Assembly (NCBI GenBank): GCA_902537725.1
Contig: CACBCD010000005.1
Coordinates: forward strand, 279-64,278
Length of the DNA: 64,000 bases
DNA from: an uncultured PS1 clade bacterium
Lineage (GTDB): Bacteria > Pseudomonadota > Alphaproteobacteria > MED-G09
Direction of reading: 5' to 3'
Under the pieces are notes generated by a model. It was not told the DNA's origin and searched no databases. It worked only from the letters and a program-made list of their open reading frames with translations. Shown here piece by piece: positions 2,237-20,481 of the stretch. Position 1 is the first letter of the stretch. Every line of letters starts with the position of its first letter. Position numbers and translations under genes: made by a program.

Positions 2237-3620
2237 CTAATCTTCTTTTGAAAAATTGAGTATTAATTCTAATGCTCCAAGCATAATTCCAGGCTGATGC
2301 TCAAATTTAGTTTCAGGTGTAAAACTTATATTTTTAACCCTATCAAAAATTAAATTCCAAGTTATAACTTGCTCTAACCGAGAAATTCCATTTCCTGGAC
2401 ATGTTCTATGACCCTGAGAAAATGTTAAATGTCTTGTAAGAGCTTTTCTGTCAAGATCAATTTGATGCGGGCATTCAAAAACTTCCTCATCCATATTAGC
2501 TGCACCATATCTCAAATGTAAAATTGAGCCTGGCGGAACTTTAACACCTTGAAATTCTTCTTCTTGGGTTGTCATTCTGGTTGATAAACCTTGAGTTGGC
2601 GCTCTAACCCTAAGGGACTCCTCAACAAAAGCCCTTATTTTACTTCTATCATTTTTTTAATTCATCAAAGAGGTCTGGATTTTTGCATAATATTTGGGCC
2701 TGCTCTGAGATAGCATATTGAGTTGTTTCAAGACCCCCAATTATCATTGCATAAGCAACTCCAATAATTTCAGTATCTGTTAACTTTCTATCATAAGGCT
2801 CATAATTAACATCAATCAAAAAAGATAACATATCATCTTTTGGATTTTTCTTTTTTTCTTCTAACTGATCAATTACATACTCACCAAACTCTTTTAAAAG
2901 AATTTGTTGCTCATCAGACTGTTCTTTAGTAAGTAAATTTCTATGCCCTTGTCCATAAACAAACGGCATTACCATTGCATCACCCCATTTTTTCAAAGAA
3001 GGTATATCAGAAAGTGGAAAACCAATAACATTTGCCATTACAATTTGAGGCAAAGGTCTTGCAAATTCCGAAATAAATTCAACTTGATCATTATTAATCC
3101 ATTTATCAATTAATCCATTGGCAGATTCTGTAATCATTTCTTCATGTCTCTCTGCACCTGTTCCAACCCAAGGATCAGTTAATTGACGCTTATGAGCTTT
3201 CCATAATTCTTCATTGGGTCTTAGACTCATTATAGAAACTTGAAGAGCATTCATTAAGTTTGGATCATGCCTACTTACAACAGTACTGGCAGGAAGTATT
3301 TTTTTAGATGCTTCATCCTCATCATCAGAATTGAAGCCACTCACACCTGCTTTTTCAAGATCAGAACTTTTCATTACTGGAGGTGGAAATCTAAGAATAT
3401 CCTTTACTACAAAAGCTATGTCTTCGTATTTAGATAGAATAAAACCATCAGTATCAGGTGAAGTTCCCTCTCCGGGAATTCTATGAACTGGCGCCTCATT
3501 ATGAAGAATCTTATAGGAGTCATACCAATATTTTTGTGCCCCTGGAGCAAATAGATCAATCTCATCTAATGACATAGGACATTTGGCTTGATTGTTATTA
3601 TCGGTAATTTCTGAACTCAT
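2237..3620 (-). pseudogene. Cytochrome P450 split by a frameshift at an A7 homopolymer (2652-2658)
   Basis: ORF 2649-3620 carries the I-helix GGLETT. ORF 2237-2575 carries the heme loop FSQGHRTCPG. Reading upstream of 2575 in its frame gives IRAFVEESLRV (K-helix ExxR). Removing one A from the run fuses both into a single ~460 aa P450. Confidence 0.7.
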
Positions 3621-6214: not shown

Positions 6215-6290
6215 GCCGACGTAGCTCAACTGGTAGAGCACCTGATTTGTAATCAGGGGGTTGGGGGTTCAAGTCCCTCCGTCGGCACCA
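6215..6290 (+). tRNA. tRNA-Thr (anticodon UGU)
   Basis: Cloverleaf folded by hand. Acceptor stem GCCGACG/CGTCGGC, anticodon loop TTTGTAA, T-loop TTCAAGT, encoded CCA. Confidence 0.9.
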
Positions 6291-6291
6291 T
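6221..6291 (+). repeat. Direct repeat copy 1 (attL core), corresponding to the 3' 70 nt of tRNA-Thr
   Basis: Identical 71-bp string GTAGCTCAACTGGTAGAGCACCTGATTTGTAATCAGGGGGTTGGGGGTTCAAGTCCCTCCGTCGGCACCAT is found again at 19459-19529. Confidence 0.85.
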
Positions 6292-6388
6292 TAAATTTTC
6301 TTAATAGCGAAACCCTGCCCTTTTCTAATATTCACTGTGTGTAAGCCTCAATGAATAATTGCAAGATTTGCCCTCTTTTACAAGCGCA

Positions 6389-6410
6389 TTGTGCCAATAC
6401 TGTGCCAAGA
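6389..6410 (+). promoter_or_regulatory. GTGCCA-N5-GTGCCAAGA motif (putative integrase arm-type site), left island end
   Basis: TTGTGCCAATACTGTGCCAAGA lies ~100 bp inside the repeat. A near-identical motif lies at 19359-19380. Confidence 0.35.
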
Positions 6411-6597
6411 ATCATGGAGGTATGGGCCACTGCCCCTATGGGGGATATCTATAAACAATAAAGACAGAAAATGTGTGCTTTAGATGTTAACCAGTTTTAA
6501 GACTCATAGAGAATCACAGGGAGGGATTATTATTTAAGGAGTCTAGGAGATTCAAAAAGTTTAAATGAGTCTGAGTGAGTCTGTATGAGCCTTAAAT

Positions 6598-7332
6598 TCA
6601 CCTTGTTATCCTTGTAATACATTGATTTGGGTTATCTTCATCAAAGTAATCACTTTCAACTTTTTTAATCACTTTAAAACCTGTTCCATCTGACTGATAG
6701 GTTATTACTGTGGAAGTACAGACATCACTACTAACCCTACTCGTAAGTGTTTTTTGTTCTATATCAATTTCTGCATTACCTTGAAAAGAAATAGTAGGAA
6801 TAGCTTCATACACGTTATCTATTTTTTCTAATTCATAAATTTGATATTTTTGATAACCCCGATTCCCACCAAAGGTTCCAATAATGATTTCATCATCACC
6901 ATCAAAATCAATATCAAATATTCTTATGGGTTCGTACTTTGATAAATCTGGATCTGGTTTATTTAATTTAATTGGGAAATTAATGCGGCATGTATCTTTA
7001 GATTGATCGCTATACCACTCCAAACATTTATATTGTAATGGTGGTAAGGCAAAATCTTTATCAATTTGAATATTTATATGTATTCCTAACTCAGATGATA
7101 TAAATCGTATGTCAGCCTTTCCTGTAATGTGATTTAAAATATCCCCAACCACAAGAATTTCAAAAGTGCCAACCACCATTATGTCTTCAAAACCCTGAGT
7201 GTAACTAAAATTAAGTTGTACTGGGGGATTTTCTTCAACTGGATGTTTTAGGATTTTAAAAACAGAGGCATTACTTTGTCCCTCAAAACAAAGAAGAAAA
7301 ATTAAAACTAATAAAAACTTAAACAACTTCAT
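6598..7332 (-). CDS. Secreted hypothetical protein (FG-GAP/VCBS-like DxDxDGDDE segment)
   Basis: Signal peptide MKLFKFLLVLIFLLCFEGQSNA. Translationally coupled to the upstream gene. Confidence 0.5.
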   Translation of the reverse strand: MKLFKFLLVLIFLLCFEGQSNASVFKILKHPVEENPPVQLNFSYTQGFEDIMVVGTFEILVVGDILNHITGKADIRFISSELGIHINIQIDKDFALPPLQYKCLEWYSDQSKDTCRINFPIKLNKPDPDLSKYEPIRIFDIDFDGDDEIIIGTFGGNRGYQKYQIYELEKIDNVYEAIPTISFQGNAEIDIEQKTLTSRVSSDVCTSTVITYQSDGTGFKVIKKVESDYFDEDNPNQCITRITR

Positions 7333-8075
7333 TCCTCAATGACCATAATATTATTATCTTTAAATTTTGTAATAATTCTTGAAACCTTAATGGTGTCCTC
7401 TAAGGGGTCATACTTACTTTTATAGTGTCCGATCACAATATCATTACCGTCTAATTTTAAAAATTTTTCATTATAGCCAACACTTATTTCTCCAACTTTA
7501 TAAACAAGGTGTCTTTCACGTCCATCTAAATAAAGGTTATATTCATCCTCATCATTCTCACTTTTAGATGATGTAGAATAATCTATATCAAGACCAAAAT
7601 CTTTTACGATACGAACAAACATAATTGTTCTTGAGGTTAGACTGCCTCCGCCATTTTCAAATATACGATATACATGAATATCATTATGTATGGTGCCTAC
7701 ATAACTATAAGAAAAAAAAGCTCTAGTATCGCCATATTCGCTTCGTTCAGAATAAGTTATACAATTCTTTTTTTCTTCATTATCGCCACAATAAATTCTA
7801 TCACCTCCTATGAAGAACCTATTGCGATCAAATTGTTTATCAAGCTGTATAGCTACAATATCATCGAAGTTAGTAGTGTCTGATATCCATACTGATAATT
7901 TCTCTAATATTAGAGGATTAATTTCTTTTGGATCTATTTTATTTTCGGCATGTAAATTATGGGAACAAAACATGAATATAGCGCTTAAAAACACGAAATT
8001 TAGAAAATATTTATTTGGCTTAATTCCGCCCTTAATACTGGTTAACAGCCATTTTAGGGGCTTGTAATTTGACAA
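7329..8075 (-). CDS. Membrane-anchored or secreted hypothetical protein
   Basis: N-terminal hydrophobic segment; 4-nt overlap with the downstream gene. Confidence 0.45.
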   Translation of the reverse strand: MSNYKPLKWLLTSIKGGIKPNKYFLNFVFLSAIFMFCSHNLHAENKIDPKEINPLILEKLSVWISDTTNFDDIVAIQLDKQFDRNRFFIGGDRIYCGDNEEKKNCITYSERSEYGDTRAFFSYSYVGTIHNDIHVYRIFENGGGSLTSRTIMFVRIVKDFGLDIDYSTSSKSENDEDEYNLYLDGRERHLVYKVGEISVGYNEKFLKLDGNDIVIGHYKSKYDPLEDTIKVSRIITKFKDNNIMVIEE

Positions 8076-8221
8076 ATTGAAACTCCTTCATTAGACTGGT
8101 GTCACTATCCCGCCGGGGATTATATATATAGTATATCTATTACCCTAATCTATTCCCTATTAAGTATATATTAAGTACCCAAGCAGGTGATTACCTATTA
8201 TTTTATATGATTCTATAAGGT

Positions 8222-8722
8222 TTACCTCTTATTAGAGTTATTCCTTCTCCATTCCCATGGTTTTATAAACTTACTTCTCCATAACCCTCTTTTATTCTCT
8301 TTAGCTAACTCTTCTTCATCAATATAATCTTTAGAATACTTTCTATATGCTAGAGCATATCCCTCTCTAACCATAATACTTCCTATATCCATACGATTAT
8401 CATCTTTAAAGATATAGCATCGAGCTAATATTCTTTTATAGCGATCTTGTCCTAGTTCCTTACAATCAAATCCATCTGTTCCATGCAATTGCTCAAGATA
8501 TAAAGCCGCTGCTAATCCACATTCCCAATCCCGATTATTAAGGGTACAGATTTGATTAATCTCTGGTGCATCCATACCCTCTAGGCGATAACGAATACCA
8601 TTGCGTTTTAGAGTATCGCCATCAGTGATAGAATAGGTTTGAGGATTCCAATCCTTAGCTTGAACATTTAGGGTTAAAAAAAGAAAGGTAAGAAGAGTAT
8701 AAAAAATATATTTAATATTCAT
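8222..8722 (-). CDS. Secreted thermonuclease (staphylococcal-nuclease-like, SNc) family protein
   Basis: Signal peptide and SNase motifs DGDTL...RLEGMDAPE. Confidence 0.6.
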   Translation of the reverse strand: MNIKYIFYTLLTFLFLTLNVQAKDWNPQTYSITDGDTLKRNGIRYRLEGMDAPEINQICTLNNRDWECGLAAALYLEQLHGTDGFDCKELGQDRYKRILARCYIFKDDNRMDIGSIMVREGYALAYRKYSKDYIDEEELAKENKRGLWRSKFIKPWEWRRNNSNKR

Positions 8723-8736
8723 ACGCTATAAGAATT

Positions 8737-9141
8737 TTATTCATTTGTTTTATTTTCAAGATTATTACTTATTATTTTTCCATCTTTCACAGAATAATAA
8801 AAAGATCCAAATCCAGAGAAATATATCAATAAATCAGTAATTAGACTTTGTTTTATATTATTGAAAATAATTGAATCAATTATAAGAAATAAAAAAAATA
8901 AAGATGGTATAATTAAAATTAACTTTGGATCGTAATTTTTATAAATATTAGTTAAAATCTCTCCAGTTAAGCCTGATGCTATAGATGAACCAACCACAAG
9001 CATAAATGACATAACAAAAAACCAATCCATTAGTTCTTCATTAATTAATAATGGGATAAACATTGAGAATAATAAAAAAATAATAAAATAGATTGGAGGG
9101 TACAAGGCAGATATCATTACTGTAAAAATTTTATTTTTCAT
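8737..9141 (-). CDS. Small polytopic membrane protein
   Basis: About four hydrophobic helices; 134 aa. Confidence 0.4.
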   Translation of the reverse strand: MKNKIFTVMISALYPPIYFIIFLLFSMFIPLLINEELMDWFFVMSFMLVVGSSIASGLTGEILTNIYKNYDPKLILIIPSLFFLFLIIDSIIFNNIKQSLITDLLIYFSGFGSFYYSVKDGKIISNNLENKTNE

Positions 9142-9178
9142 AATTAGACCTTAGACTAAATTATATAGTTTTTTAATT

Positions 9179-9973
9179 TTAATTATTCGCTAAATTTAAT
9201 AAAGGGTGAGTTTTATAAAATTCTTCACTCCAATACCCTTCTCTTAATAACTCATTCTCTATTTCTTTTGCGTGATTTTTAGATAGTTTAAAGGTTCTGT
9301 ATTTATTAAATAAATCTATTCCATAGCTATTAGGATTTATAGCAAAAATATGATACCAAAAATTTAAAACTGGTGACATCCAATTTTGTTTAGGACTATA
9401 GCTAGAATACAAAACCCTATTATTTTCATGTAGATACCCTCTAATCATTCCATCAGTTTCTTTCTTGTATAAAAGATCCCTCTCTGTTGCCATTTTGTTA
9501 GTAACATCAACAAGTTGATAATTTATGACTGAATAAATCTTTGTAATTAATCCATAACCAGCATTAGGACCCCATTTACGACCATGGCTTCCAACTACTG
9601 CTGTAACCTCACATACACCATCATTATTAAGGTCTAAAATATTGATTTCTCTATGGAAACCAAGATGTGCTAATTTAGCTGGTTCACTATCACCATATTT
9701 ATCTGGGTTCCCTTTTTCTATGAATGTTAGACCATGGCTTCTAGCCGTGCCTGTACCTCCAGTCTTAACGATATAAAAATCATGATACCCTTCATGTGGA
9801 TACTGATTTTTTGGATCAAGACACCAGTATAATCTAAAACCATGAAGTTCTTTTGCAGAAATCCAATTACCAGCCTTATCTGATGTTACAACATATGCTT
9901 TTACCTCAGTTGAGAGGGTAAAAATGCTTATGCATAGAGCTAAACAAATCTTATATATTGAACTAGTGCTCAA
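9179..9973 (-). CDS. Secreted hypothetical protein
   Basis: Signal peptide ending TEVKA; 11-nt overlap with the upstream MORN gene. Confidence 0.5.
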   Translation of the reverse strand: MSTSSIYKICLALCISIFTLSTEVKAYVVTSDKAGNWISAKELHGFRLYWCLDPKNQYPHEGYHDFYIVKTGGTGTARSHGLTFIEKGNPDKYGDSEPAKLAHLGFHREINILDLNNDGVCEVTAVVGSHGRKWGPNAGYGLITKIYSVINYQLVDVTNKMATERDLLYKKETDGMIRGYLHENNRVLYSSYSPKQNWMSPVLNFWYHIFAINPNSYGIDLFNKYRTFKLSKNHAKEIENELLREGYWSEEFYKTHPLLNLANN

Positions 9974-10643
9974 ATTTACGTTCTCCTAAAAAATCATCAG
10001 GATCAATATCGTTAAGTATTTCTCCGTCCTCATTCCAGAATGTGTATTCGGAAGAAATTTCACCATTGATATATTTTATTTCAGCCATAATTTGGCCATT
10101 TGCATACCATCGTCTCTCTAAACCATGAAGGACACCATCAAGAAACTCTCCCTCAATTTTCTTTTTTCCATCTGAATAATACTGCGTCTCTAATCCATTT
10201 TGATGCCCATCTTTAAAATTTCCCACAGCTTTTAAATTTCCATTAGGCCACCAGGCTTTAGAAATCCCTGTATGATGATCATCTTTAAACTCAGCAAAGC
10301 CTAAATATGATCCATCCTCATACCAAGACTCCATTGATCCATTTTTAACACCACCTTTATATTGAATTTTTGCTTTTAATTGGCCATTAGGAAAATAGTA
10401 GATTTCAAATCCTTCCTGAATATCATTAATAAAGACTAACTCTTTTTCAATATTACCATCACTATCATAGTGAATTTCTTTTCTTTGCTTATTCCAAAAT
10501 TTATTAGAGCTAACTACTTCAATCTGGCCAGTGGAGGTTTTTATAATTTCTTTTTGTTCATTTGAATAAATAAAATATCCAACTAAAAATAAAGCTACAA
10601 CAAAGATAAATAAAAATTTTATTTTCTTATTTTTCATTTTCAT
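9963..10643 (-). CDS. MORN-repeat (YwqK-like) protein, membrane-anchored or secreted
   Basis: Repeated YxxNGxL(K/E)...G motifs and an N-terminal hydrophobic anchor. Confidence 0.6.
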   Translation of the reverse strand: MKMKNKKIKFLFIFVVALFLVGYFIYSNEQKEIIKTSTGQIEVVSSNKFWNKQRKEIHYDSDGNIEKELVFINDIQEGFEIYYFPNGQLKAKIQYKGGVKNGSMESWYEDGSYLGFAEFKDDHHTGISKAWWPNGNLKAVGNFKDGHQNGLETQYYSDGKKKIEGEFLDGVLHGLERRWYANGQIMAEIKYINGEISSEYTFWNEDGEILNDIDPDDFLGERKFEH

Positions 10644-11868
10644 CCAGATCTAATGTTTTTAAAAACGAAGCTATTTGACTGACCTCTTTATCGTTTAAAT
10701 ATTGCACAATTTCGTTTGTATCATTCTTTGCAAGATACTTATTATACTGATGCCTTTGCAGTGGTGTCATTTTTTTTGCATCAAAAAATTGCAGTGGATC
10801 AAAGTGATATTGTATTGTTTCATCTAATGACATTACTGCCCCAGAATGGCTGTATGGTCGTGTTTTGGAGACATTATGTAGAGAGGGGGTACGAAATTTA
10901 TATTGATCCTCGGGATTGAACGTAGAATTATAAAGTCCATAATCAATACCAAACCCATTTTTTCCAAATCCTAATTGAGGAAAAGGAACAGTATAAAAAT
11001 TAAAATCTGAAAAGTATGGTCCACTATGACATGACACACATCCACCTTTTCCATAAAATAGTAAGCCTCCATTTAACTCATCTTCATTAAGAGAAGTTTC
11101 ACCTTCAATAAACTTACTGAATTTTGATGGTCTCAATTTAAATTCTGAACGTATAAAATGTGCAAGCGCTGTTGCAATATTAATAAATTCTATCTCTTCA
11201 AAATTCACGCCAATTTCTTTTGCTAGTTTTTTCATTAAAGCAGGTTCTTTAACAATTAAATTTTCAACAACTCTTTTATAAATTTCATCCGCTGCACTTG
11301 TTGTTTCTTTTTTAAAGCTTTTTACCACATAGTCCTCTTGAAGAGTTTCCCTTATCTCCACAACAGGAAGGTGAACAGCTGTAATAAGGAGGTCTTCACT
11401 TGGTGTATCTTTTCCAAATTGACTTGTAATAGTTTCACCAGATCTACTTACTCTTCCATCCCAGAAAAAAGTTGAGAAACCTTTTCCTCCTACTCCCCAT
11501 AGGGCAAGGGTATTTCTAGGAACAACCTTACCACCAGCTTTATAACGAGATATTCCTTCACCATCTCCTCCTATCCCTATAGCATTTGGTAATCCATCAC
11601 CGGAGGCAGCCTTATCAAAATGACAGCTAACACAGGCAACTCCTCCATTTAAGCTAAGATTTTCACTTTCAAAAAGATCTTTGCCAATGGCTGCCATATT
11701 TTCATCTACTGGAATATGTGTTGATGAAGGTAAGTCATAACCTGATGCTTTGGCTCTCTCTTTAATAATGGACTCTTTGTAAACATTGCTGGCCTGAGCC
11801 TTCAAATTGCCATAAAAATTAAAAAGGAAAATTAAGCAAAAAATAAAAGTTTTAATATTTAAATTCAT
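10627..11868 (-). CDS. Di-heme cytochrome c peroxidase / MauG-like enzyme
   Basis: Signal peptide and two CxxCH motifs (CVSCHFDK and CVSCHSGPYF), with CCP/MauG architecture. Confidence 0.8.
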   Translation of the reverse strand: MNLNIKTFIFCLIFLFNFYGNLKAQASNVYKESIIKERAKASGYDLPSSTHIPVDENMAAIGKDLFESENLSLNGGVACVSCHFDKAASGDGLPNAIGIGGDGEGISRYKAGGKVVPRNTLALWGVGGKGFSTFFWDGRVSRSGETITSQFGKDTPSEDLLITAVHLPVVEIRETLQEDYVVKSFKKETTSAADEIYKRVVENLIVKEPALMKKLAKEIGVNFEEIEFINIATALAHFIRSEFKLRPSKFSKFIEGETSLNEDELNGGLLFYGKGGCVSCHSGPYFSDFNFYTVPFPQLGFGKNGFGIDYGLYNSTFNPEDQYKFRTPSLHNVSKTRPYSHSGAVMSLDETIQYHFDPLQFFDAKKMTPLQRHQYNKYLAKNDTNEIVQYLNDKEVSQIASFLKTLDLDENEK

Positions 11869-12247
11869 GGGTCTCTATAAATGTATCTATATGTGTATTG
11901 TTTTCTTCTATGGCTTCAAGACCTAATTTAGATAGATCATTAGGACTAACCCCCCACGAAATCATAAATTTTCTTAGTTTATCATAGTCATGACAATGTA
12001 CTAATCCCACTTCAGACATTTCTAATGCTTTCAAAGATTCCATAGATTTTTCAACTGTAACTCTATTCTTTGCTATTAAATGATTGCGCATAGCACTATC
12101 ACAGATAAACATTTTTTCTTTATATTCTTCTCCATAAAAATTATTTACGGCATAAGGTGCTACAATAAATTTTACTGCAAGGGCCAAACAGGATAAGCCA
12201 GCAACAACATTGATTAATACAAGAAATTTTTCAGATTTTTTCAACAT
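11852..12247 (-). CDS. Small membrane-anchored hypothetical protein
   Basis: N-terminal transmembrane helix; overlaps both neighbours. Confidence 0.4.
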   Translation of the reverse strand: MLKKSEKFLVLINVVAGLSCLALAVKFIVAPYAVNNFYGEEYKEKMFICDSAMRNHLIAKNRVTVEKSMESLKALEMSEVGLVHCHDYDKLRKFMISWGVSPNDLSKLGLEAIEENNTHIDTFIETHEFKY

Positions 12248-12642
12248 TGTAATAACTCTCTTGTTTTTTCATCAATTATTCCCGATGGATTTAAATTATT
12301 ATTATATTGAAAGTACAATGTTTCAACCAGAACCTCATGACTGGTTATGTCTTCGATATTGGCAAAGTTATGGCCTTGATCATTCATCTTCACCAAACAC
12401 CCAATCATCCATGGTGCATCTTTTTTTATTCTCTCTTTGCGCTCTTGCTCAAGGGCGACTGCAGGATTAGCAGGTAACACAAAAGTCCTAGGTGTACTTC
12501 CCTCGTTTCTTCCTCCTTCAATCTCAACTTGAATTGGGGCTTTAAACAAATCTTTTGCATATAATAAAAATCCAAATGGAGTAATTGTTACAAGATAAAG
12601 AAGTGTTAAAGAAAAAATTAAAATAAAATTTCGCTCAGACAT
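12241..12642 (-). CDS. Small membrane-anchored hypothetical protein
   Basis: N-terminal transmembrane helix; immediately downstream of hxsC. Confidence 0.4.
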   Translation of the reverse strand: MSERNFILIFSLTLLYLVTITPFGFLLYAKDLFKAPIQVEIEGGRNEGSTPRTFVLPANPAVALEQERKERIKKDAPWMIGCLVKMNDQGHNFANIEDITSHEVLVETLYFQYNNNLNPSGIIDEKTRELLQC

Positions 12643-13812
12643 TTATGAAAAAGCCTTTATATGATCACTATGTTTATAAAGAATTTGAGATGAGAAAAAA
12701 CCACCACATTCATGCTTACGCGAACATTTATTGCATTCATCTAAATATTCATTTTTCCAGTCACTGATTGAGTGAACATAATTATCTTCAACATCTGGGT
12801 TAACAGTGCATAACTGATGATTATAAACAGAATTATTTATTTTACTTCTGTTTAAGACAGCAACGGCCTGACTTAGAGTATCTTTATAGTCATAAGGATC
12901 AATCCATAAATCAGGTAAATTTGCCCGTGTAAATCCAGTTATTTCAAGTCCCATCAAAGCAACATGATCAACGAATAGAAGGTTACGAGAAATATATTCA
13001 CAGGTCTCAACAAGTCGTCCTATTGTTTGCTGATGAATGACAATCCTAATTTCTACTTTTTGATTCAAAGCTTTTAAATTTAAAATACCCTGAATTGTTT
13101 CATCAAATGCATCTTCAGATTGAACAACATAATTATGAATTTCAGGTACATCTGAATAAATTGGAATACAGATCATACAATTAGGATGATCTATTTTATG
13201 TAAAAGTCTTGCATATTCAGGATCGGAGAATGCTCTACCATTAGATAATATATCAATAGCGGTTTGTGGAAGGTAACCTCGACACTTCTCTACTAAGTCA
13301 ATTAACTTTTCTTTATAAATAGTAGGCTCACCACCAGAAAATCCCATACGTACTGTGTCACGAGGAATTAACTCTATGGCTTCCATAGCTCTCTCCAGCA
13401 ACCATGAGTCTTCTTTAGATTTTGGTGGTTGAGAACACATTAAACAATAATGATTACAGCGTTCGGTTAATAAAAAAGTATTGTATTTTGCATTACTTCT
13501 AAAGATTGCCCAAATACTTCCATCATCTTTAAAGTTAATAATATCCCCAGCTTCCATATAATCCATATATTGAGGAATATGGAACCAATTCTTATGCTTA
13601 GAAGTACTAAAAACTGATGCATTTTGCGATATATAAGCACCAAAACCATCTGGTAAATTAGTATCTATGTTTTCTTTAAGAATGTAAGCATACTTTTCAC
13701 GAAGGGGAAAAGGTAAGCTACTATCATCAGAAATAATAAGCATTTTGTGACCGATAAAGTCACAATGAAAATCTTTTGTGGATCCTCTTAATTGAAGCAT
13801 TAGTTTATCCAA
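12643..13812 (-). CDS. hxsC: Radical SAM maturase, His-Xaa-Ser system HxsC-like
   Basis: CxxxCxxC motif (CNHYCLMC); paired with the second rSAM; lies in an operon with the HXS-repeat precursor. Confidence 0.6.
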   Translation of the reverse strand: MDKLMLQLRGSTKDFHCDFIGHKMLIISDDSSLPFPLREKYAYILKENIDTNLPDGFGAYISQNASVFSTSKHKNWFHIPQYMDYMEAGDIINFKDDGSIWAIFRSNAKYNTFLLTERCNHYCLMCSQPPKSKEDSWLLERAMEAIELIPRDTVRMGFSGGEPTIYKEKLIDLVEKCRGYLPQTAIDILSNGRAFSDPEYARLLHKIDHPNCMICIPIYSDVPEIHNYVVQSEDAFDETIQGILNLKALNQKVEIRIVIHQQTIGRLVETCEYISRNLLFVDHVALMGLEITGFTRANLPDLWIDPYDYKDTLSQAVAVLNRSKINNSVYNHQLCTVNPDVEDNYVHSISDWKNEYLDECNKCSRKHECGGFFSSQILYKHSDHIKAFS

Positions 13813-15281
13813 CTTTCAAAAATAGAACGGGTTTCCAAATTGGAATCATAGGTATCCAACAAATGACTAAAAGTATTATAATTTCTGTAGCAAAAATCTG
13901 ATTCTGCTTTTTTCCCTAAAAAATCCCCTGTAGTAGCATAATGAAATACAGGATCTGCTCCGCAATATTGCTCAAAAGCACATTCACTACAACGCGGTGC
14001 GCTTGTTGTCATAGATTGTTCAAGAGGATCGAGAAGTTTATCGCTTAAAAATACATCTTTAAAATTATCTGTCGCAAGATTTCCAATTTCAAAAGTATTA
14101 TCACCCATTTCGGCAAGCATTCTTCCTTCATCAGAGGCAAATATCTTGCCATCATAATTATATACTATACCACCAATACCAATCCCTGCTGGGGATCGAA
14201 GGTCAACATAACCGGGGTCTTTGAGTGTAAGTATTTTTTTCAAAATTGTAGCAGAATAGAATTCTCTAAAATGAACACCTGATTTATTTATTTCTAATAT
14301 ATATTCTAAACCAGTCTTATAAAATTCAAACCACTTCTTACTTCCATAGGCATTGTATTTTTTAGTTTTAATAGCAAATCCGTAAGGTGATAAAGGTCTT
14401 AAAAAAATTCCAGAGAATCCCTGTTTTAAATATTCATCAATTATTATTCTTGGATCATCTAAGCTCTTATCTGTTGTTGTCATTAGGGCATTCACTTTAT
14501 CAAAGCCAAGCTTTTCTCTAACTTTTTTTATTCCTTCAGTTGCCAACTCATAACTGTTGTTGCCAGGTCTTGGCCTATTGTGATTATGTAAAGATGCTGG
14601 CCCGTCTAATGATGTGGAAATCTCTATATCATGAAGTTTACAATAATCTAAAATTTCATCAGTAATAACAGCTAGATTTGTTGCAATTACAAAAGATAAA
14701 TCCTTCCCAATAGCCTCATTTTTTTCTTTAGCATCATGAACAATGAATTTAAGAGTATCAAAATTTAATAAGGGTTCACCACCTTGAAATTCTATCTTTA
14801 TTCTTGGCGATGGTCCTGACAGTGCAAAATCAACAGCTTTTGAAGCAGTTTCATAGGACATATCAAAGGCAAGCTTATCATCAGATTGTCTTGAAACCTG
14901 ACAATAAGGACAACTATGTTCACACCGAAGAGAGATTACAAACATATGAAGAGATGTAAGATTGGAATAATTTGAGAGCTTTGTTCGTGTTTTTATTCCT
15001 AATAATTGTTTAGCCGATTGTGTTTGGTCGTCACAAATAAAATGTAAGGATCTAAGATTTAAATAATCATCAGAATCATTTGGAAGGGTTCCATCAACTA
15101 AACTCTTTAGAACCTCATCTTTCGTAAAGAAATATTCTCCTACTAAATTTGTAAGTAAAACTCTTCCATTGATACGTGCAAAACGAAAGGGAAGAAGCTC
15201 ATAACTTTCATTAGTATTTTGAAAAAAATTTTGCTTTTGAAACTTAGTCATTATCAGAAAGTCCAGATTTTGAAAAAGCAA
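13800..15281 (-). CDS. hxsB: Radical SAM/SPASM maturase, His-Xaa-Ser system HxsB-like
   Basis: CEHSCPYC rSAM motif, plus a C-terminal SPASM-like CSECAFEQYC. The true start may be the internal Met at 15251. Confidence 0.65.
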   Translation of the reverse strand: MLFQNLDFLIMTKFQKQNFFQNTNESYELLPFRFARINGRVLLTNLVGEYFFTKDEVLKSLVDGTLPNDSDDYLNLRSLHFICDDQTQSAKQLLGIKTRTKLSNYSNLTSLHMFVISLRCEHSCPYCQVSRQSDDKLAFDMSYETASKAVDFALSGPSPRIKIEFQGGEPLLNFDTLKFIVHDAKEKNEAIGKDLSFVIATNLAVITDEILDYCKLHDIEISTSLDGPASLHNHNRPRPGNNSYELATEGIKKVREKLGFDKVNALMTTTDKSLDDPRIIIDEYLKQGFSGIFLRPLSPYGFAIKTKKYNAYGSKKWFEFYKTGLEYILEINKSGVHFREFYSATILKKILTLKDPGYVDLRSPAGIGIGGIVYNYDGKIFASDEGRMLAEMGDNTFEIGNLATDNFKDVFLSDKLLDPLEQSMTTSAPRCSECAFEQYCGADPVFHYATTGDFLGKKAESDFCYRNYNTFSHLLDTYDSNLETRSIFESWIN

Positions 15282-15543
15282 AGGCTAGAATTAAATTTTT
15301 AACTCCATCTGTTTTATTTGCTATTTCAATTCTTAACTCTTGATCTAAAACTTCATTACGAAATTCAATTTCAAAGTCTTCATAATTATCAATTGTAGAA
15401 TCTTTTTTAGGAATTATCTTACAGATATAACTGCTTTCATCTTCAGAAATATCTAATGCACATCTATCAGAAAAAACATAAGCAGCTTTCTTAATTGCTT
15501 CTAGACTAGTGCACTGACTATCAAAGTTCAGTGATGACGACAA
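15244..15543 (-). CDS. hxsD: His-Xaa-Ser system protein HxsD-like
   Basis: 99 aa acidic protein with VLDQELRIE, which resembles the HxsD LLNDYxLRE signature. Lies between the precursor and the rSAM genes. Confidence 0.5.
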   Translation of the reverse strand: MSSSLNFDSQCTSLEAIKKAAYVFSDRCALDISEDESSYICKIIPKKDSTIDNYEDFEIEFRNEVLDQELRIEIANKTDGVKNLILAFAFSKSGLSDND

Positions 15544-15545
15544 TT

Positions 15546-15809
15546 TTAGTAACCAGAGCTGTGAGAAGAATGTGAGCCGTGAGAGCCGTGAGAGCCGTGA
15601 GAACTATGAGAGCTATGGCCAGCGGACTGGATAGCATCATTATCATTTCCATTATTTTCCATCAAAAGTTCAGATAATATTGGATTATCAATTTGAAGTT
15701 TTTTACCAGTTTGTTCTTCATATACATTACTAGCATGACTAGTTATTGCTCCTGCAGCGACTACTGCAACCGCTGAACTTAAACCTATTAAAAATTTCTT
15801 TTTTGACAT
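15546..15809 (-). CDS. hxsA: His-Xaa-Ser repeat precursor peptide HxsA-like with Sec signal peptide
   Basis: MSKKKFLIGLSSAVAVVAAGAITSHA signal peptide. C-terminus HSSHSSHGSHGSHGSHSSHSSGY, i.e. seven H-x-S repeats. Confidence 0.65.
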   Translation of the reverse strand: MSKKKFLIGLSSAVAVVAAGAITSHASNVYEEQTGKKLQIDNPILSELLMENNGNDNDAIQSAGHSSHSSHGSHGSHGSHSSHSSGY

Positions 15810-16429
15810 AATAATTTTTCACTAATTGATAAAACACTAACGATTCTTCTTAAGCCTGTCAAATTATTGTATTTATTAATAAAAAACTTTAAATTTTTTT
15901 AAATTAGATTACCATATTTATTAGTACAGGGAGGTATTTGATTTCATAGTAGAATTAGCAGCGATAGTTTTTTTATTACTTACGGCACCATTTTGGTTTC
16001 CACTCTTACTAGGACTTTTGCAATTCTCTCTAGTTATAATAATTCCTCTTTTATTCATTTTAGGCCTTGTAGCGATAATCGCTGTAATTGCCTGATATAG
16101 TTTAATCATTTGGAGGAAATATGACATTAGACACATTCACATCAGTAATATCCATTAGCGTCGTAGGGCTAATTATTTTTGGAATTGCTTTTTTATTAAT
16201 AGTAAAAATTTCTCCTTTTTCTGTAAAAAAAGAGATTGAAGAAGATCAAAATACATCACTTGGAATACTTATCGGAAGTATTTTTATCTCTTTAGCAATT
16301 ATAATAAGTGCTGCTATCAGCTAATTATTAAAACCTAAACGAGAATAAAAAAATAACTAGTATTGTGACTTGGTTACTTCCAAAAATATTTTCCCTTTAC
16401 TAAAAAGATTTATTTAGTATTTTAAAAGA

Positions 16430-16577
16430 ACATCATGAGAGAGTGTAAACTCCGCCAACCAGCCTTAATCGGGCAACGGTGGTCCAACGATGTGGTTTTA
16501 GGATAAGACCTTGATAAAGGCACCAAAACAACAATACGATTGAGGCTCTTACGATGTTTTTCGTAGGGGCTTTTTTT
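16430..16577 (+). ncRNA. GC-rich structured leader or small RNA ending in an intrinsic terminator
   Basis: Local GC is far above its surroundings. Ends with hairpin GAGGCTCTTACG/CGTAGGGGC plus a T7 run at 16542-16577, directly upstream of ORF 16599. No riboswitch class could be assigned by eye. Confidence 0.3.
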
Positions 16578-16598
16578 ATGTCTCTACTTAATTATTAA

Positions 16599-16793
16599 AT
16601 GGAGACAAAAATGAATAAAAAAAATGATATGGATCTCATTAATCAATTAATGAAAGAAAGAAGAGATGCTATACATAGCTATGGCTTTGATTCTGAAAAC
16701 TTTAAAAAAATTGATGCAAAGTTTCAAAAATTATTAAATAAATATAACCTTATTCACACTGAACTAACTTTGGGATGGAAACAAAATAAGTAA
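16599..16793 (+). CDS. Small hypothetical protein (64 aa)
   Basis: ORF immediately after the terminator-containing leader. No recognisable domain. Confidence 0.3.
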   Translation: METKMNKKNDMDLINQLMKERRDAIHSYGFDSENFKKIDAKFQKLLNKYNLIHTELTLGWKQNK

Positions 16794-18069
16794 AGTAATT
16801 AATATTGATAATAAGTTTACCTTTATAGATTTATTTGCAGGTTGCGGGGGTCTCTCCCTTGGTATGGAAAAAGCTGGTTTTTTTCCATTATATGTAAATG
16901 AACTGAATAACGATGCTCTTGAAACTTACTTAGTAAATAGAGAAAAGTTTTTTCCTCACTTAAGGAATAAATATAATTCAAATGATATAAAAGATGTAAT
17001 TTCTGATAAAAATTTTTTTAATAATTTATTTAAAAATTTAAAAAACGATTTCAATAGAGATTTTAAAAAAAATTCTATCGATTTAATAACTGGAGGACCT
17101 CCCTGCCAAGGTTTTTCAGGTATGGGAATAAGAAGATCTTACTCAGTTGAAAAAAAACAGCTTCCATCAAATCATCTCTATCAGGATATGGCTTTTTTCA
17201 TACATCAGATTAGACCAAAAATATTTTTATTTGAGAATGTTGAAGGCCTAATAAGATCAAGATGGACAAAAAATGGAGAAAAAGGTGAGATATTTAATGA
17301 TGTATTAACAACATTCAGAAATATTCCAAATTACAATGTAAAATATAAACTTATCTATGCAAAAGATTATGGTGTTCCTCAAAATAGACCTCGAGTTTTA
17401 ATTGTAGGAATTCGTAAAGATTTCTCAAATAATTTTTTAGATGATGATGCTGTTTTAGCGGAATTTCTTCCTTTTCCTACATCAGATTATCCGGATATAG
17501 AGGAAATTTTTTCAGATATTATTGATGATAATTTTGTTTACGGGGAATCAACAAATATATATAAAAATGATCCCTTAAATAAATGGCAGGAGAACATTAG
17601 ATTTAATCCATTTACTAAGCAGATCTTAAAGAAAAATGATCCACTTACAGATCAACAATATAGTAGGCATTCTTTAAAGGTAATTGAAAAATTTACTTAT
17701 ATGATAAAAAATAATGGAGAAATTCCAGAGCATTTAAAAACTAAAAAATTTTCTCAAAGAGTTCTTCCAAGTAAGTGGGGTAATAAAGGACCCACTATAA
17801 CAGCATGTTCATTACCCGATGATTTCGTTCATTACAGTCAGCCAAGATCATTAACAGTTAGAGAATGGGCAAGACTACAAACTTTTCCTGACTGGTATGA
17901 ATTTAAAGGAAAAAGGACCACAGGCGGAATAAGAAGAGCAGGTAATCCAAGAAAGTCTATTTTTGATAGGGAGGTTCCAAAATACACTCAAATTGGTAAC
18001 GCTGTTCCAGTTAAACTAGCTTTTGAAATAGGCAAACATTTTGTTAAAATTTTAAAAAATTATAACTAA
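16786..18069 (+). CDS. DNA (cytosine-5)-methyltransferase, Type II R-M
   Basis: Motif IV GGPPCQGFS, ENV motif FLFENVEG, motif X QIGNAVPV. Motif I FIDLFAGCGGLSLG is encoded upstream of the first ATG at 16864, which implies a non-ATG start (ATA 16786 or ATT 16798). Confidence 0.8.
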   Translation: MSKVINIDNKFTFIDLFAGCGGLSLGMEKAGFFPLYVNELNNDALETYLVNREKFFPHLRNKYNSNDIKDVISDKNFFNNLFKNLKNDFNRDFKKNSIDLITGGPPCQGFSGMGIRRSYSVEKKQLPSNHLYQDMAFFIHQIRPKIFLFENVEGLIRSRWTKNGEKGEIFNDVLTTFRNIPNYNVKYKLIYAKDYGVPQNRPRVLIVGIRKDFSNNFLDDDAVLAEFLPFPTSDYPDIEEIFSDIIDDNFVYGESTNIYKNDPLNKWQENIRFNPFTKQILKKNDPLTDQQYSRHSLKVIEKFTYMIKNNGEIPEHLKTKKFSQRVLPSKWGNKGPTITACSLPDDFVHYSQPRSLTVREWARLQTFPDWYEFKGKRTTGGIRRAGNPRKSIFDREVPKYTQIGNAVPVKLAFEIGKHFVKILKNYN

Positions 18070-18085
18070 AGAAATTTATAATTAG

Positions 18086-19264
18086 ATGCTAATAAATGCA
18101 AATATTGATATTCTAGAAACTCTGTCCGCCTTTAGAGCCGAAGGGTTAAGGGTGGCTTTTTTAGTACCCACAGAAACCGGTTTAAAAAAATCAATAATGG
18201 ATGCAACTCAACAGTTTAGGGAGTTCCTCTCCAATGAAGATATTCATAATTTTGATAATCAAAATCAAGGAACTGCTAATAAAAAACTGATAGAAACTAT
18301 TTTAATATCCAAAAATAATTACTTCCAAACCAAAACATCTCTATATAGACCAGAAACAAAAAAGGGGGACCCAAGAATATGGGTGTATGAGTTAGGCCAA
18401 CATGCTTCAGAGGGTGATCTCCTAGCATTTTTATCTTCTAAAGAACAGTTAGTCGTAATCAATTGTAGTAACTGCAACCTTAAGGATTTATTTGAATCCA
18501 TAAAATTAAAGATACCCAATATTCTATCTTTTGAGACTTCATCAATATCAGACGAATTACTTAATAAAATGAAAGGAATATCTAATAAAGGTTTCATTAA
18601 ATCTCTTAAGACAGGAGATACTGGCGTGGGATTTACCCTAGAAACTCTTTTGGGTATCCAAGCAAATTCATCAAAAACACCTGATTATAAAGGAATTGAA
18701 ATTAAATCAATTAGACGTAGAAATCCGAAAGGAACTTTTTTTAGTATGGCGCCTGACTGGAAAAAAAGTAACCTTACAGATATAGAGCTTATTGAAAAAA
18801 GGGGATACTACACTGAAAAATTTGGTCCTCTAAAATCTCTTCACCAAACACTATCAACCAAAAAGAACAAACGTAATTTAAAATTATTATTAGAAGAAAA
18901 AGATATCTATGGTGGTTTAGAGAGTAATAATATTTTTGAAAAAGATGTTTATTGGTCTTTGGAAGAGTTGCAAAAAAGAATAACTGCCAAGCACAAAGAA
19001 ACATTTTGGATTGATGTAGAGACAAAAGGATCAGGTATTAATGAAGAATTTAAATATAGATCAATAACCCATACCTCTGATGTAGACATCGGGGTGGTTC
19101 CATTATTATTGGAACAAGGGATGATTACTCTTGATTACGTACTTTGGGAAAAAGGAAAAAATTGGAAAAGTTATACTAAAAAAAGTGGCTATGATTATTT
19201 ATGGAAAATTAAAAAAAAGAACCTTGATACCTTATTTAAGTATATAAAAATATACGATTTATGA
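18086..19264 (+). CDS. Putative Type II restriction endonuclease, partner of the C5-MTase
   Basis: Co-oriented, 16 nt after the MTase. Possible PD-(D/E)xK-like segment PDYKGIEIKS. No other homology recognised. Confidence 0.45.
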   Translation: MLINANIDILETLSAFRAEGLRVAFLVPTETGLKKSIMDATQQFREFLSNEDIHNFDNQNQGTANKKLIETILISKNNYFQTKTSLYRPETKKGDPRIWVYELGQHASEGDLLAFLSSKEQLVVINCSNCNLKDLFESIKLKIPNILSFETSSISDELLNKMKGISNKGFIKSLKTGDTGVGFTLETLLGIQANSSKTPDYKGIEIKSIRRRNPKGTFFSMAPDWKKSNLTDIELIEKRGYYTEKFGPLKSLHQTLSTKKNKRNLKLLLEEKDIYGGLESNNIFEKDVYWSLEELQKRITAKHKETFWIDVETKGSGINEEFKYRSITHTSDVDIGVVPLLLEQGMITLDYVLWEKGKNWKSYTKKSGYDYLWKIKKKNLDTLFKYIKIYDL

Positions 19265-19347
19265 ACTTTATGTTTATAAAGGTAAGGCGTACCATTTTTA
19301 TTATCTTGTGCTCGCCACTTGTTTTGTCGTTTTGTAATACTAGCCAT
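19265..19347 (-). pseudogene. Remnant of a tyrosine integrase N-terminus (arm-binding domain)
   Basis: Minus-strand ATG at 19347 gives MASITKRQNKWRAQDNKNGTPYLYKHKV, which resembles MASIRKRGNSWQAQ-type integrase N-termini. The reading frame then runs into the 3' end of the REase gene. Confidence 0.3.
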
Positions 19348-19358
19348 GTCTTCCTCCC

Positions 19359-19380
19359 GTGCCATAATTGTGCCAAGAGG
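19359..19380 (+). promoter_or_regulatory. GTGCCA-N5-GTGCCAAGA motif (putative arm-type site or int promoter), right island end
   Basis: CGTGCCATAATTGTGCCAAGAGG, just upstream of the int remnant and 79 bp from the attR repeat. Confidence 0.35.
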
Positions 19381-19458
19381 CTTATCAACGTAATGAATAA
19401 AAGTTTGCCTATTGCTTTAAAACCGCTTCCATACTAAATAATGAGTATGAGAAATGGT

Positions 19459-19529
19459 GTAGCTCAACTGGTAGAGCACCTGATTTGTAATCAGGGGGTT
19501 GGGGGTTCAAGTCCCTCCGTCGGCACCAT
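19459..19529 (+). repeat. Direct repeat copy 2 (attR), a truncated tRNA-Thr 3' fragment
   Basis: Identical 71 bp to 6221-6291. Its 5' flank AATGGTG cannot pair with CGTCGGC, so it is not a functional tRNA. Confidence 0.85.
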
Positions 19530-19560
19530 AAATATTTTTTAAAATTTTGGTATCAATCAT

Positions 19561-20481
19561 ATGCAATCATTTAAAGATAAAGTCGCAGTCATAACGGGGG
19601 CTGGATCGGGAATGGGTCAACAACTGGCTATTAATCTCGCAAAAGAAAATTGTAATCTTGTTATTTGCGATATTAACAAAAAAACAATCCAAGAAACTGA
19701 GGAAATTATAAGAAATTATAATGTCTCATGTACTGCATTAAATTTAGATTTAAGAGATGATAAAAATATCAAAACACTTTTAGAAACAACACTTAAAAAT
19801 TATAATAAGGTTGATTTATTATTTAATAATGCAGGTGTAGTTGCTCCATCATCTTTTCTAAATTTATCGGTAGAGGTTTGGGATTGGTGTAATGATATAA
19901 ATTATAATGCACTTGTAAAACTATCCAGGATTTTTTTACCACATCTAATAAAAAGTGATGAAGGCGCGTTAATAAATACCTCTTCAATTTTTGGTATTAT
20001 AACAACTCCAAACAATACAGTTTATCACTCTTCAAAATTTGCAGTTAGAGGTTTTACCGAAAGTCTGGCAATGGAATTAAGAGATGAAAAAATTCAGATT
20101 CACTCAGTTTATCCAGGTCATATTGGAACTAATATCGTTTTAGATGCAAAATTTGATAAAGATTTTTTGACAGCAGAAAATGAAAATAAAAACAATCCTG
20201 ATGGTAACCCTATAACAATTCAAGAGTTTGGTTCAACTTTTAAAGATACAGGCATGAATCCCAATAAAGCTGCAAAAATTATTTTAAAAGGAGTAAAAAG
20301 AAATAAAAAAAGAATTTTTGTAGGCTTGGATGCAAAAGTTATGGAAATTGCCCAAAGATTAGCACCTTCGCACTTCATGAAATTAATACCATTTTTAAAT
20401 CTTCTTATTTTTCCTTATTTTATTAAAAGATTAAAAATGACAAGAGTATTAATCTCGATTGCTAAAGGCAGAAAAAGTTAA
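19561..20481 (+). CDS. Short-chain dehydrogenase/reductase (SDR)
   Basis: TGAGSGMG Rossmann motif and YxxxK active site. Confidence 0.75.
   Translation: MQSFKDKVAVITGAGSGMGQQLAINLAKENCNLVICDINKKTIQETEEIIRNYNVSCTALNLDLRDDKNIKTLLETTLKNYNKVDLLFNNAGVVAPSSFLNLSVEVWDWCNDINYNALVKLSRIFLPHLIKSDEGALINTSSIFGIITTPNNTVYHSSKFAVRGFTESLAMELRDEKIQIHSVYPGHIGTNIVLDAKFDKDFLTAENENKNNPDGNPITIQEFGSTFKDTGMNPNKAAKIILKGVKRNKKRIFVGLDAKVMEIAQRLAPSHFMKLIPFLNLLIFPYFIKRLKMTRVLISIAKGRKS

Follow-up and report, generated by a model that had tools for sequence, protein, structure and literature searches.

An integrase gene stub at the right border of a tRNA-Thr island in a marine OCS116 bacterium, very probably left by a deletion next to a resident restriction-modification cassette

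How did a genomic island come to keep the first codons of an integrase gene (int) beside its attachment site, and is the restriction-modification (R-M) cassette that now abuts these codons responsible for the loss of the rest? In the 64,000-nucleotide stretch of DNA analyzed here (the window, which represents one assembly), a minus-strand ATG at 19347-19345 opens MASITKRQNKWRAQDNKNGTPYLYKHKV, as read from the sequence and just as the original prediction had described it. A ribosome-binding site, GGGAGG (19353..19358, minus strand), likewise read from the sequence, lies 5 nt 5' of this ATG, and the end of codon 28 of the stub, 19264, is also the final base of the stop codon of a plus-strand restriction endonuclease gene (18086-19264). 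The original prediction took the peptide for the arm-binding N terminus of a phage-type tyrosine integrase, placed it at the right end of an island, and suggested that the R-M module had been inserted into int or had replaced it, thereby immobilizing the island. We conclude that the feature is very probably the 5' stub of a lambda-type int in a 13.2-kb tRNA-Thr(TGT) island of OCS116, truncated by a single 1,488-bp deletion at a time when the R-M cassette was already present, and that the cassette was not the cause.

The identity of the stub rests on its opening motif and on intact cognate genes. Back-translated into a degenerate DNA pattern, the motif M-A-[S/T..]-I-x-K-R-x-N-x-W occurs once in the window (19315-19347, minus strand) and in 0 of 100 shuffles, with an analytic expectation of 3e-6 per window. 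A viral-contig collection contains 62 matches to the pattern, 58 of which start ORFs that either are long or continue past the end of the stored stretch; the other 4 start ORFs of 12-14 aa. When the 56 viral-contig ORFs of at least 200 aa were grouped at 70% identity, 21 of the 22 cluster representatives matched PF00589 (Phage_integrase), and many of the 22 also matched Arm-DNA-bind_4, Int_N or SAM-like domains. Since nearly all matches open long or run-off ORFs and nearly all representatives carry the integrase domain, the motif is diagnostic of tyrosine-integrase N termini. A metagenome scan with the degenerate MASITKRQNKWRA pattern then yielded two contigs, both marine, L081 (CEUJ01010764.1) and L082 (Ga0222719_10002255), each with an intact tyrosine integrase (322 and 321 aa, respectively) at the same site; these are longer homologs at tRNA-Thr of the kind that the original prediction had proposed to look for. 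Both proteins begin MASITKRQNKWRAQ[IV]RKQGYRYFSKTF, and window codons 1-14 (MASITKRQNKWRAQ; 19306..19347, minus strand) are identical to both genes at 42/42 nt. A tblastn comparison of the two integrases with the whole window aligns residues 1-25 to 19347-19273 at 72% identity (E = 1.4e-5), in agreement with the proposed integrase origin.

The same comparison, covering both sides of the R-M genes, places the remainder of the two proteins at E = 2 or worse, so that the rest of int is gone from the window, as had been proposed. The catalytic domain (R..K..H-x-x-R..H/W..Y) is accordingly absent, the cognate tblastn reaching residues 1-25 only and Pfam returning nothing for the ORF. Generic searches with the peptide were empty: Pfam scans of the 28- and 50-aa peptides (E up to 10), phmmer against the PDB (E up to 10), tblastn against phage genomes and a look-up of the exact N-terminal peptide in viral contigs gave no match, and a word-indexed protein search with the 56-aa ORF gave no candidates; a fragment of 14-28 residues is too short for such tools. 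Had the stub been judged by significant similarity in standard tools of this kind, as the original prediction proposed, its identity would have been wrongly rejected. The 56-aa ORF itself (19195..19365, minus strand) is a mechanical one that starts at an upstream ATG, comprises 50 aa when counted from the ATG at 19347 and stays open to 19195; past codon 25 it runs antisense to island-backbone sequence and to the 3' end of the restriction gene, it is no real gene, and an exact-product look-up found its product on record in no assembly. We regard the feature as an ordinary pseudogene remnant, the nonfunctional 5' part of int, and not as a member of the integrase family as a protein.

Similarity to the intact genes extends upstream of the stub. 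In the 113 nt preceding int, the window and L082 are identical at 108 positions, and past the int start L082 shares with the window the leader, the partial tRNA-Thr copy and the short-chain dehydrogenase/reductase (SDR) gene; the GGAGG core of the ribosome-binding site is kept in 5 of 6 intact int alleles and reads GGAGA in the sixth (L095). The L082 integrase matches PF00589 at 7e-28 and belongs to a family that is large in marine data, with P0121-P0135 being 67-96% identical to it over the full length and additional members at about 45%. A structural model of the family, built from 40 members (pLDDT 88), predicts strands at residues 3-7, 10-15 and 23-27 and a helix at 30-45, with core-binding and catalytic domains C-terminal to these elements. 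The predicted fold superimposes on full-length lambda Int over 345 columns (TM 0.68), and the family sequence profile matches lambda Int chains from residue 70 onward, so that a three-domain, lambda-Int-like fold is predicted and "arm-binding N terminus" is a fair description of the part encoded by the stub. Mapped onto this model, the window retains the motif and strands beta1 and beta2 (the 42/42-nt segment), beta3 being scrambled and the helix lost to the deletion; the arm-binding domain is therefore incomplete.

The scrambled segment is a 33-nt patch (19273..19305, minus strand) that stands in register with int codons 15-25 and reads DNKNGTPYLYK where the intact genes have V/I-RKQGYRYFSK, replacing V/I15, R16, Y20, R21, F23 and S24, residues that are invariant in functional members. 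Aligned in register, it still matches the intact gene at 21/33 nt, a score reached at 5 of 127,936 window positions (P ~4e-5); beyond codon 25, identity falls to chance level (7-11/30). Uniform decay cannot produce 12 changes in 33 nt beside none in 42, and a clean deletion does not predict scrambled codons 15-25 next to perfect codons 1-14. A divergent int allele is an unlikely source, as any two of the six intact alleles agree at 30-33 of the 33 nt of these codons, even where their proteins are only 70% identical. The patch may stem from error-prone repair at the junction or from an older recombination event.

The island that contains the stub is well delimited. Its 13.2 kb (6292..19458) are bounded on the left by an intact tRNA-Thr(TGT) gene (6215..6291, plus strand; also given as 6215-6290) that constitutes attL, with the direct repeat spanning 6221-6291, and on the right by attR, 71 nt that repeat the 3' part of this tRNA exactly (19459..19529, plus strand), lack the 5' acceptor arm and are scored as a tRNA by Rfam (53.6 bits), ARAGORN making no call. 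The int-like reading frame starts 111 nt inward of attR and is directed into the island; with 71-nt repeats at its borders, the region is indeed the right end of a tRNA-Thr island. We considered a third, internal att copy, as would be expected of tandem islands, and rejected it, the tRNA 3' end being present in two copies only in the window. An empty site is found in OCS116 AG-390-A19 (L001), where 36 nt separate the tRNA-Thr gene from the SDR gene downstream of it. The SDR gene on the right flank of the window (19561-20481) is 95% identical to that of the same OCS116 cluster bacterium. OCS116 is an alphaproteobacterial clade, incertae sedis, and the host is thus a marine OCS116 alphaproteobacterium and not SAR11, to whose islands this one had initially been likened.

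Both arms of the island contain tandem GTGCCA repeats spaced by 11 bp, at 19359-19364 and 19370-19375 on the right and at 6391..6407 (starts 6391 and 6402) on the left, all on the plus strand. Such pairs recur at both ends of L081 and of L096, islands with different cargo (the left-arm counterparts start at 28 and 39 in L081 and at 9226 and 9237 in L096), and in the right arm of L082. We take them to be probable arm-type Int-binding sites. Read on the other strand, TGGCAC-N5-TGGCAC could be mistaken for a sigma-54 promoter, an assignment we rejected since the same pair is present in the left arm and the right-arm pair lies too close to the ATG; no promoter call stood out above shuffles.

What, then, removed int? 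A blastn comparison of L082 with the window, with L082 genes assigned from ORFs and Pfam, shows that the two islands are near-identical over much of their cargo, L082 6855-12795 corresponding to window 9961-15912 at 97.8% identity, including a His-Xaa-Ser (Hxs) system. Two further blocks match at the right end. L082 12790-12938 is 100% identical to window 19123-19271 (plus strand), 149 nt made up of the C-terminal 47 codons of the restriction gene (R) and 7 nt of island backbone, and L082 14427-14739 matches window 19273-19581 at 93%, covering the 5' end of int, attR and the start of the SDR gene. Between these blocks L082 has 1,488 bp (12939-14426) that are absent from the window and contain a gene for a MORN-repeat protein (12947-13489) and int from codon 26 to the stop. 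The deletion junction in the window is thus at 19271..19272, its left end 7 nt past the R stop codon. L082 has suffered a loss of its own: it lacks window 15913-19122, about 3.2 kb with the DUF350, riboswitch, orf64 and methyltransferase sequences and most of R, and its junction shows 6-nt microhomology (GATTAC, window 15907-15912 and 19123-19128). Each island therefore keeps a remnant of a gene that is intact in the other.

This reciprocity hinges on the 149-nt piece in L082 being part of R. In the window, the MvaI/BcnI-type domain (PF15515, 1.4e-48) aligns residues 159-384 of the 392 in R to profile positions 1-227 of 227, and more than 100 homologs cover 100% of the protein; the 3' end thus belongs to R proper, and the piece in L082 is a genuine R relic. 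Its position in a row that reads last 47 R codons, MORN-repeat gene and intact int implies that the R-M genes and int once coexisted. We posit that the ancestral right end would have consisted of the cargo, a rightward riboswitch-orf64-M-R unit, leftward MORN-repeat and int genes, and attR; that in the lineage of the window a single 1,488-bp deletion would have removed the MORN-repeat gene and int from about codon 26, bringing what was left of int to within 7 nt of the R stop codon; and that L082 would independently have lost the ~3.2 kb with the R-M genes. The order of these events is one that we infer. No contig with complete R-M, MORN-repeat and int genes together was found in the metagenome, genome and viral-contig scans, and the predicted ancestral R/MORN junction had no match in viral contigs; the P0125 and P0131 contigs were considered as candidates for the ancestral arrangement and rejected as too short or of other context.

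The R-M genes form a unit of their own. The portable cassette (16388..19265, plus strand) is 88.5% identical over exactly the same span to a copy in L092 that stands in a different context, beside tRNA-Pro, with homology ending at the R stop codon. It opens with a SAM-I/IV riboswitch (RF01725, Rfam, 51.2 bits; 16425-16545, plus strand) and a terminator-like hairpin with a T-run (16542-16573, plus strand), which lies directly upstream of orf64 (16599-16793, plus strand), the C5 DNA methyltransferase gene M (16864-18069, plus strand; PF00145 at 5.2e-53) and the adjoining endonuclease gene R (18086-19264, plus strand). The riboswitch layout is the same in L092 (203-323, 52 bits), where the leader is ~94% identical, as compared with 88.5% for the whole cassette. 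Adjacent R (PF15515) and M (PF00145) genes are as in other MvaI/BcnI type II systems; the riboswitch that precedes them is unusual, and with respect to the stub the R-M system is a neighbor. An R-M operon controlled through SAM sensing would be out of the ordinary and is possibly the most novel feature of the region; a literature search for a SAM riboswitch linked to an R-M system found nothing relevant, as did one for OCS116 islands. Exact-product look-ups found neither the M nor the R protein of the window on record. R homologs with 83% identity (L083-L091) occur in a convergent R/M layout beside 487-aa P4-type integrases, which we do not count as the same island. To the left of the cassette, the island carries a complete HxsABCD peptide-maturation system (12643-15809, minus strand), whose genes are also present in L082 at 97.8% identity: HxsC (12643-13812, minus strand, 387 bits), HxsB (13800-15281, minus strand, 595 bits), HxsD (15244-15543, minus strand) and the repeat peptide HxsA (15546-15809, minus strand), the last a weak match below the family cutoff. 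A 67-aa DUF350 membrane protein (16121-16324, plus strand; 7.8e-11) is encoded inside the 3.2 kb lost by L082 and outside the R-M cassette.

Other islands at the tRNA-Thr/SDR site show what usually accompanies int. Next to it are found type I hsdM-hsdS-hsdR genes in L093/L094 (GCA_003281865.1), an HsdR-like gene with a fused M/S gene in L096, and genes for a 1337-aa Eco57I-like methylase and a 1111-aa SNF2/PLD helicase in L081; in L096, the tRNA copy next to int is partial, and the full tRNA lies at a distance of 7.2 kb. R-M genes beside int are thus the norm in this family, in other words normal cargo, and the OCS116 tRNA-Thr/SDR site is a hotspot at which one int/att backbone is combined with interchangeable, modification-based defense cargo. 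This island family was previously undescribed.

Against this background, it is improbable that arrival of the R-M cassette, by insertion into int or by replacement of it, truncated the gene. The proposal draws on real features of the locus, the cassette (16388-19265) being portable, as its 88.5% copy beside tRNA-Pro attests, and its right border lying 7 nt from the junction. It does not account, however, for the 100%-identical 3' stub of R in L082 beside intact MORN-repeat and int genes; a 3' int fragment, which a split gene would leave behind, is absent to the left of the cassette and from the rest of the window; and the siblings carry R-M genes beside int as a rule. This part of the original prediction is therefore set aside. 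The closeness of the deletion end to the cassette border, only 7 nt, could be a sign that the deletion was linked to cassette mobility.

Two further readings concern the stub rather than the cassette. That it was kept for a function, such as encoding a small peptide or letting the int promoter and arm sites drive antisense transcription that converges on the 3' end of R, would fit the retention of the ribosome-binding site, of 108/113 upstream nucleotides and of all 42 nucleotides of codons 1-14 beside 33 scrambled ones, and a frame that stays open for 50 codons across the R end; the same conservation is, however, expected from recency, the cargo being 97.8% identical, and with only two of three beta strands left, the helix lost, a product that is on record nowhere else and no promoter call above shuffles, we hold such a role to be very improbable. 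An ORF arising by chance in AT-rich DNA, or a chimeric assembly join, could be invoked on the grounds that peptide searches of Pfam, the PDB, phage and word-indexed proteins came back empty and that the truncated allele is seen in no other assembly. A 42/42-nt identity with intact genes at the same chromosomal site, a motif expected 3e-6 times per window and flanks that are both collinear with L082 make this hardly credible, and the chance reading is refuted. A single deletion in an island that already carried the R-M cassette remains, in our judgment, very probably the correct account of the stub.

Loss of int bears on the mobility of the island. Working integrases stand beside att in L081, L082, L093, L095 and L096, and the window has the stub only; with int gone, the island should therefore be unable to excise itself in cis. 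The immobilization originally proposed holds to this extent and not beyond it, as the island has kept both core repeats and arm-type sites intact, so that excision in trans by the integrase of a sibling island would be possible. A bolder version of this idea is that the island belongs, as a non-autonomous element, to an undescribed OCS116 tRNA-Thr "defense-cargo" family that swaps R-M systems beside an int/att backbone, that a sibling integrase could excise and transfer it in trans, and that the 5' region was kept by selection on the arm sites and not through recency; we would rate this combined reading as rather unlikely, and offer it tentatively.

Several known systems provide a frame for these observations. 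The intact relatives resemble heterobivalent tyrosine integrases of the lambda Int type in having PF00589, a lambda-like predicted fold and repeats in both arms, whereas the window keeps codons 1-14 and 11 scrambled codons, without a core-binding or catalytic domain. Islands inserted at tRNA genes and "anchored" there by a decayed or truncated integrase are well known from pathogenicity islands. The present island shares with them the tRNA 3' repeat at both borders, a sister genome in which the site is unoccupied, cargo that varies and an int remnant by att, and departs from them in its host, an uncultured marine OCS116 bacterium, in its R-M and Hxs cargo and in having one clean deletion instead of scattered frameshifts. 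Cis-mobilizable elements (CIMEs), described in Streptococcus, are flanked by att sites, lack a recombinase of their own and are excised by the integrase of a related element. Intact att core repeats and arm sites, a missing integrase and siblings with cognate integrases at the same site make the island similar to CIMEs; unlike in their case, the window holds no co-resident helper island, and mobilization in trans is hypothetical here.

A truncated integrase at an island border is a familiar sign of lost self-excision, and the stub itself matters little. Its value lies in fixing the borders and the history of the island, in correcting the tempting but wrong story of an R-M insertion that killed int, and in exposing an undescribed hotspot, with a riboswitch-preceded R-M cassette among its cargoes, in an abundant uncultured marine lineage.

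Three minor observations concern traffic at tRNA genes. In OCS116 AG-390-I16 (L005, 9627-10001), the tRNA-Thr and SDR genes are ~370 bp apart, and the interval, in which a second tRNA copy is absent, contains an 82-aa ORF resembling a C-terminal fragment of a cysteine desulfurase, which may be another relic of past traffic at the tRNA-Thr site. ARAGORN calls the int-proximal tRNA-Thr copy complete in L093 and L095 (9838-9913), and the window, L082 and L096 have a partial one; island variants may differ from one another in repeat length or in the polarity of att duplication. Finally, the L092 cassette begins at the 3' end of tRNA-Pro(GGG) (90-166) and is followed by an inverted, partial tRNA-Pro-like sequence (3160-3220), and may represent a minimal tRNA-associated element without an integrase on a 3.4-kb contig.
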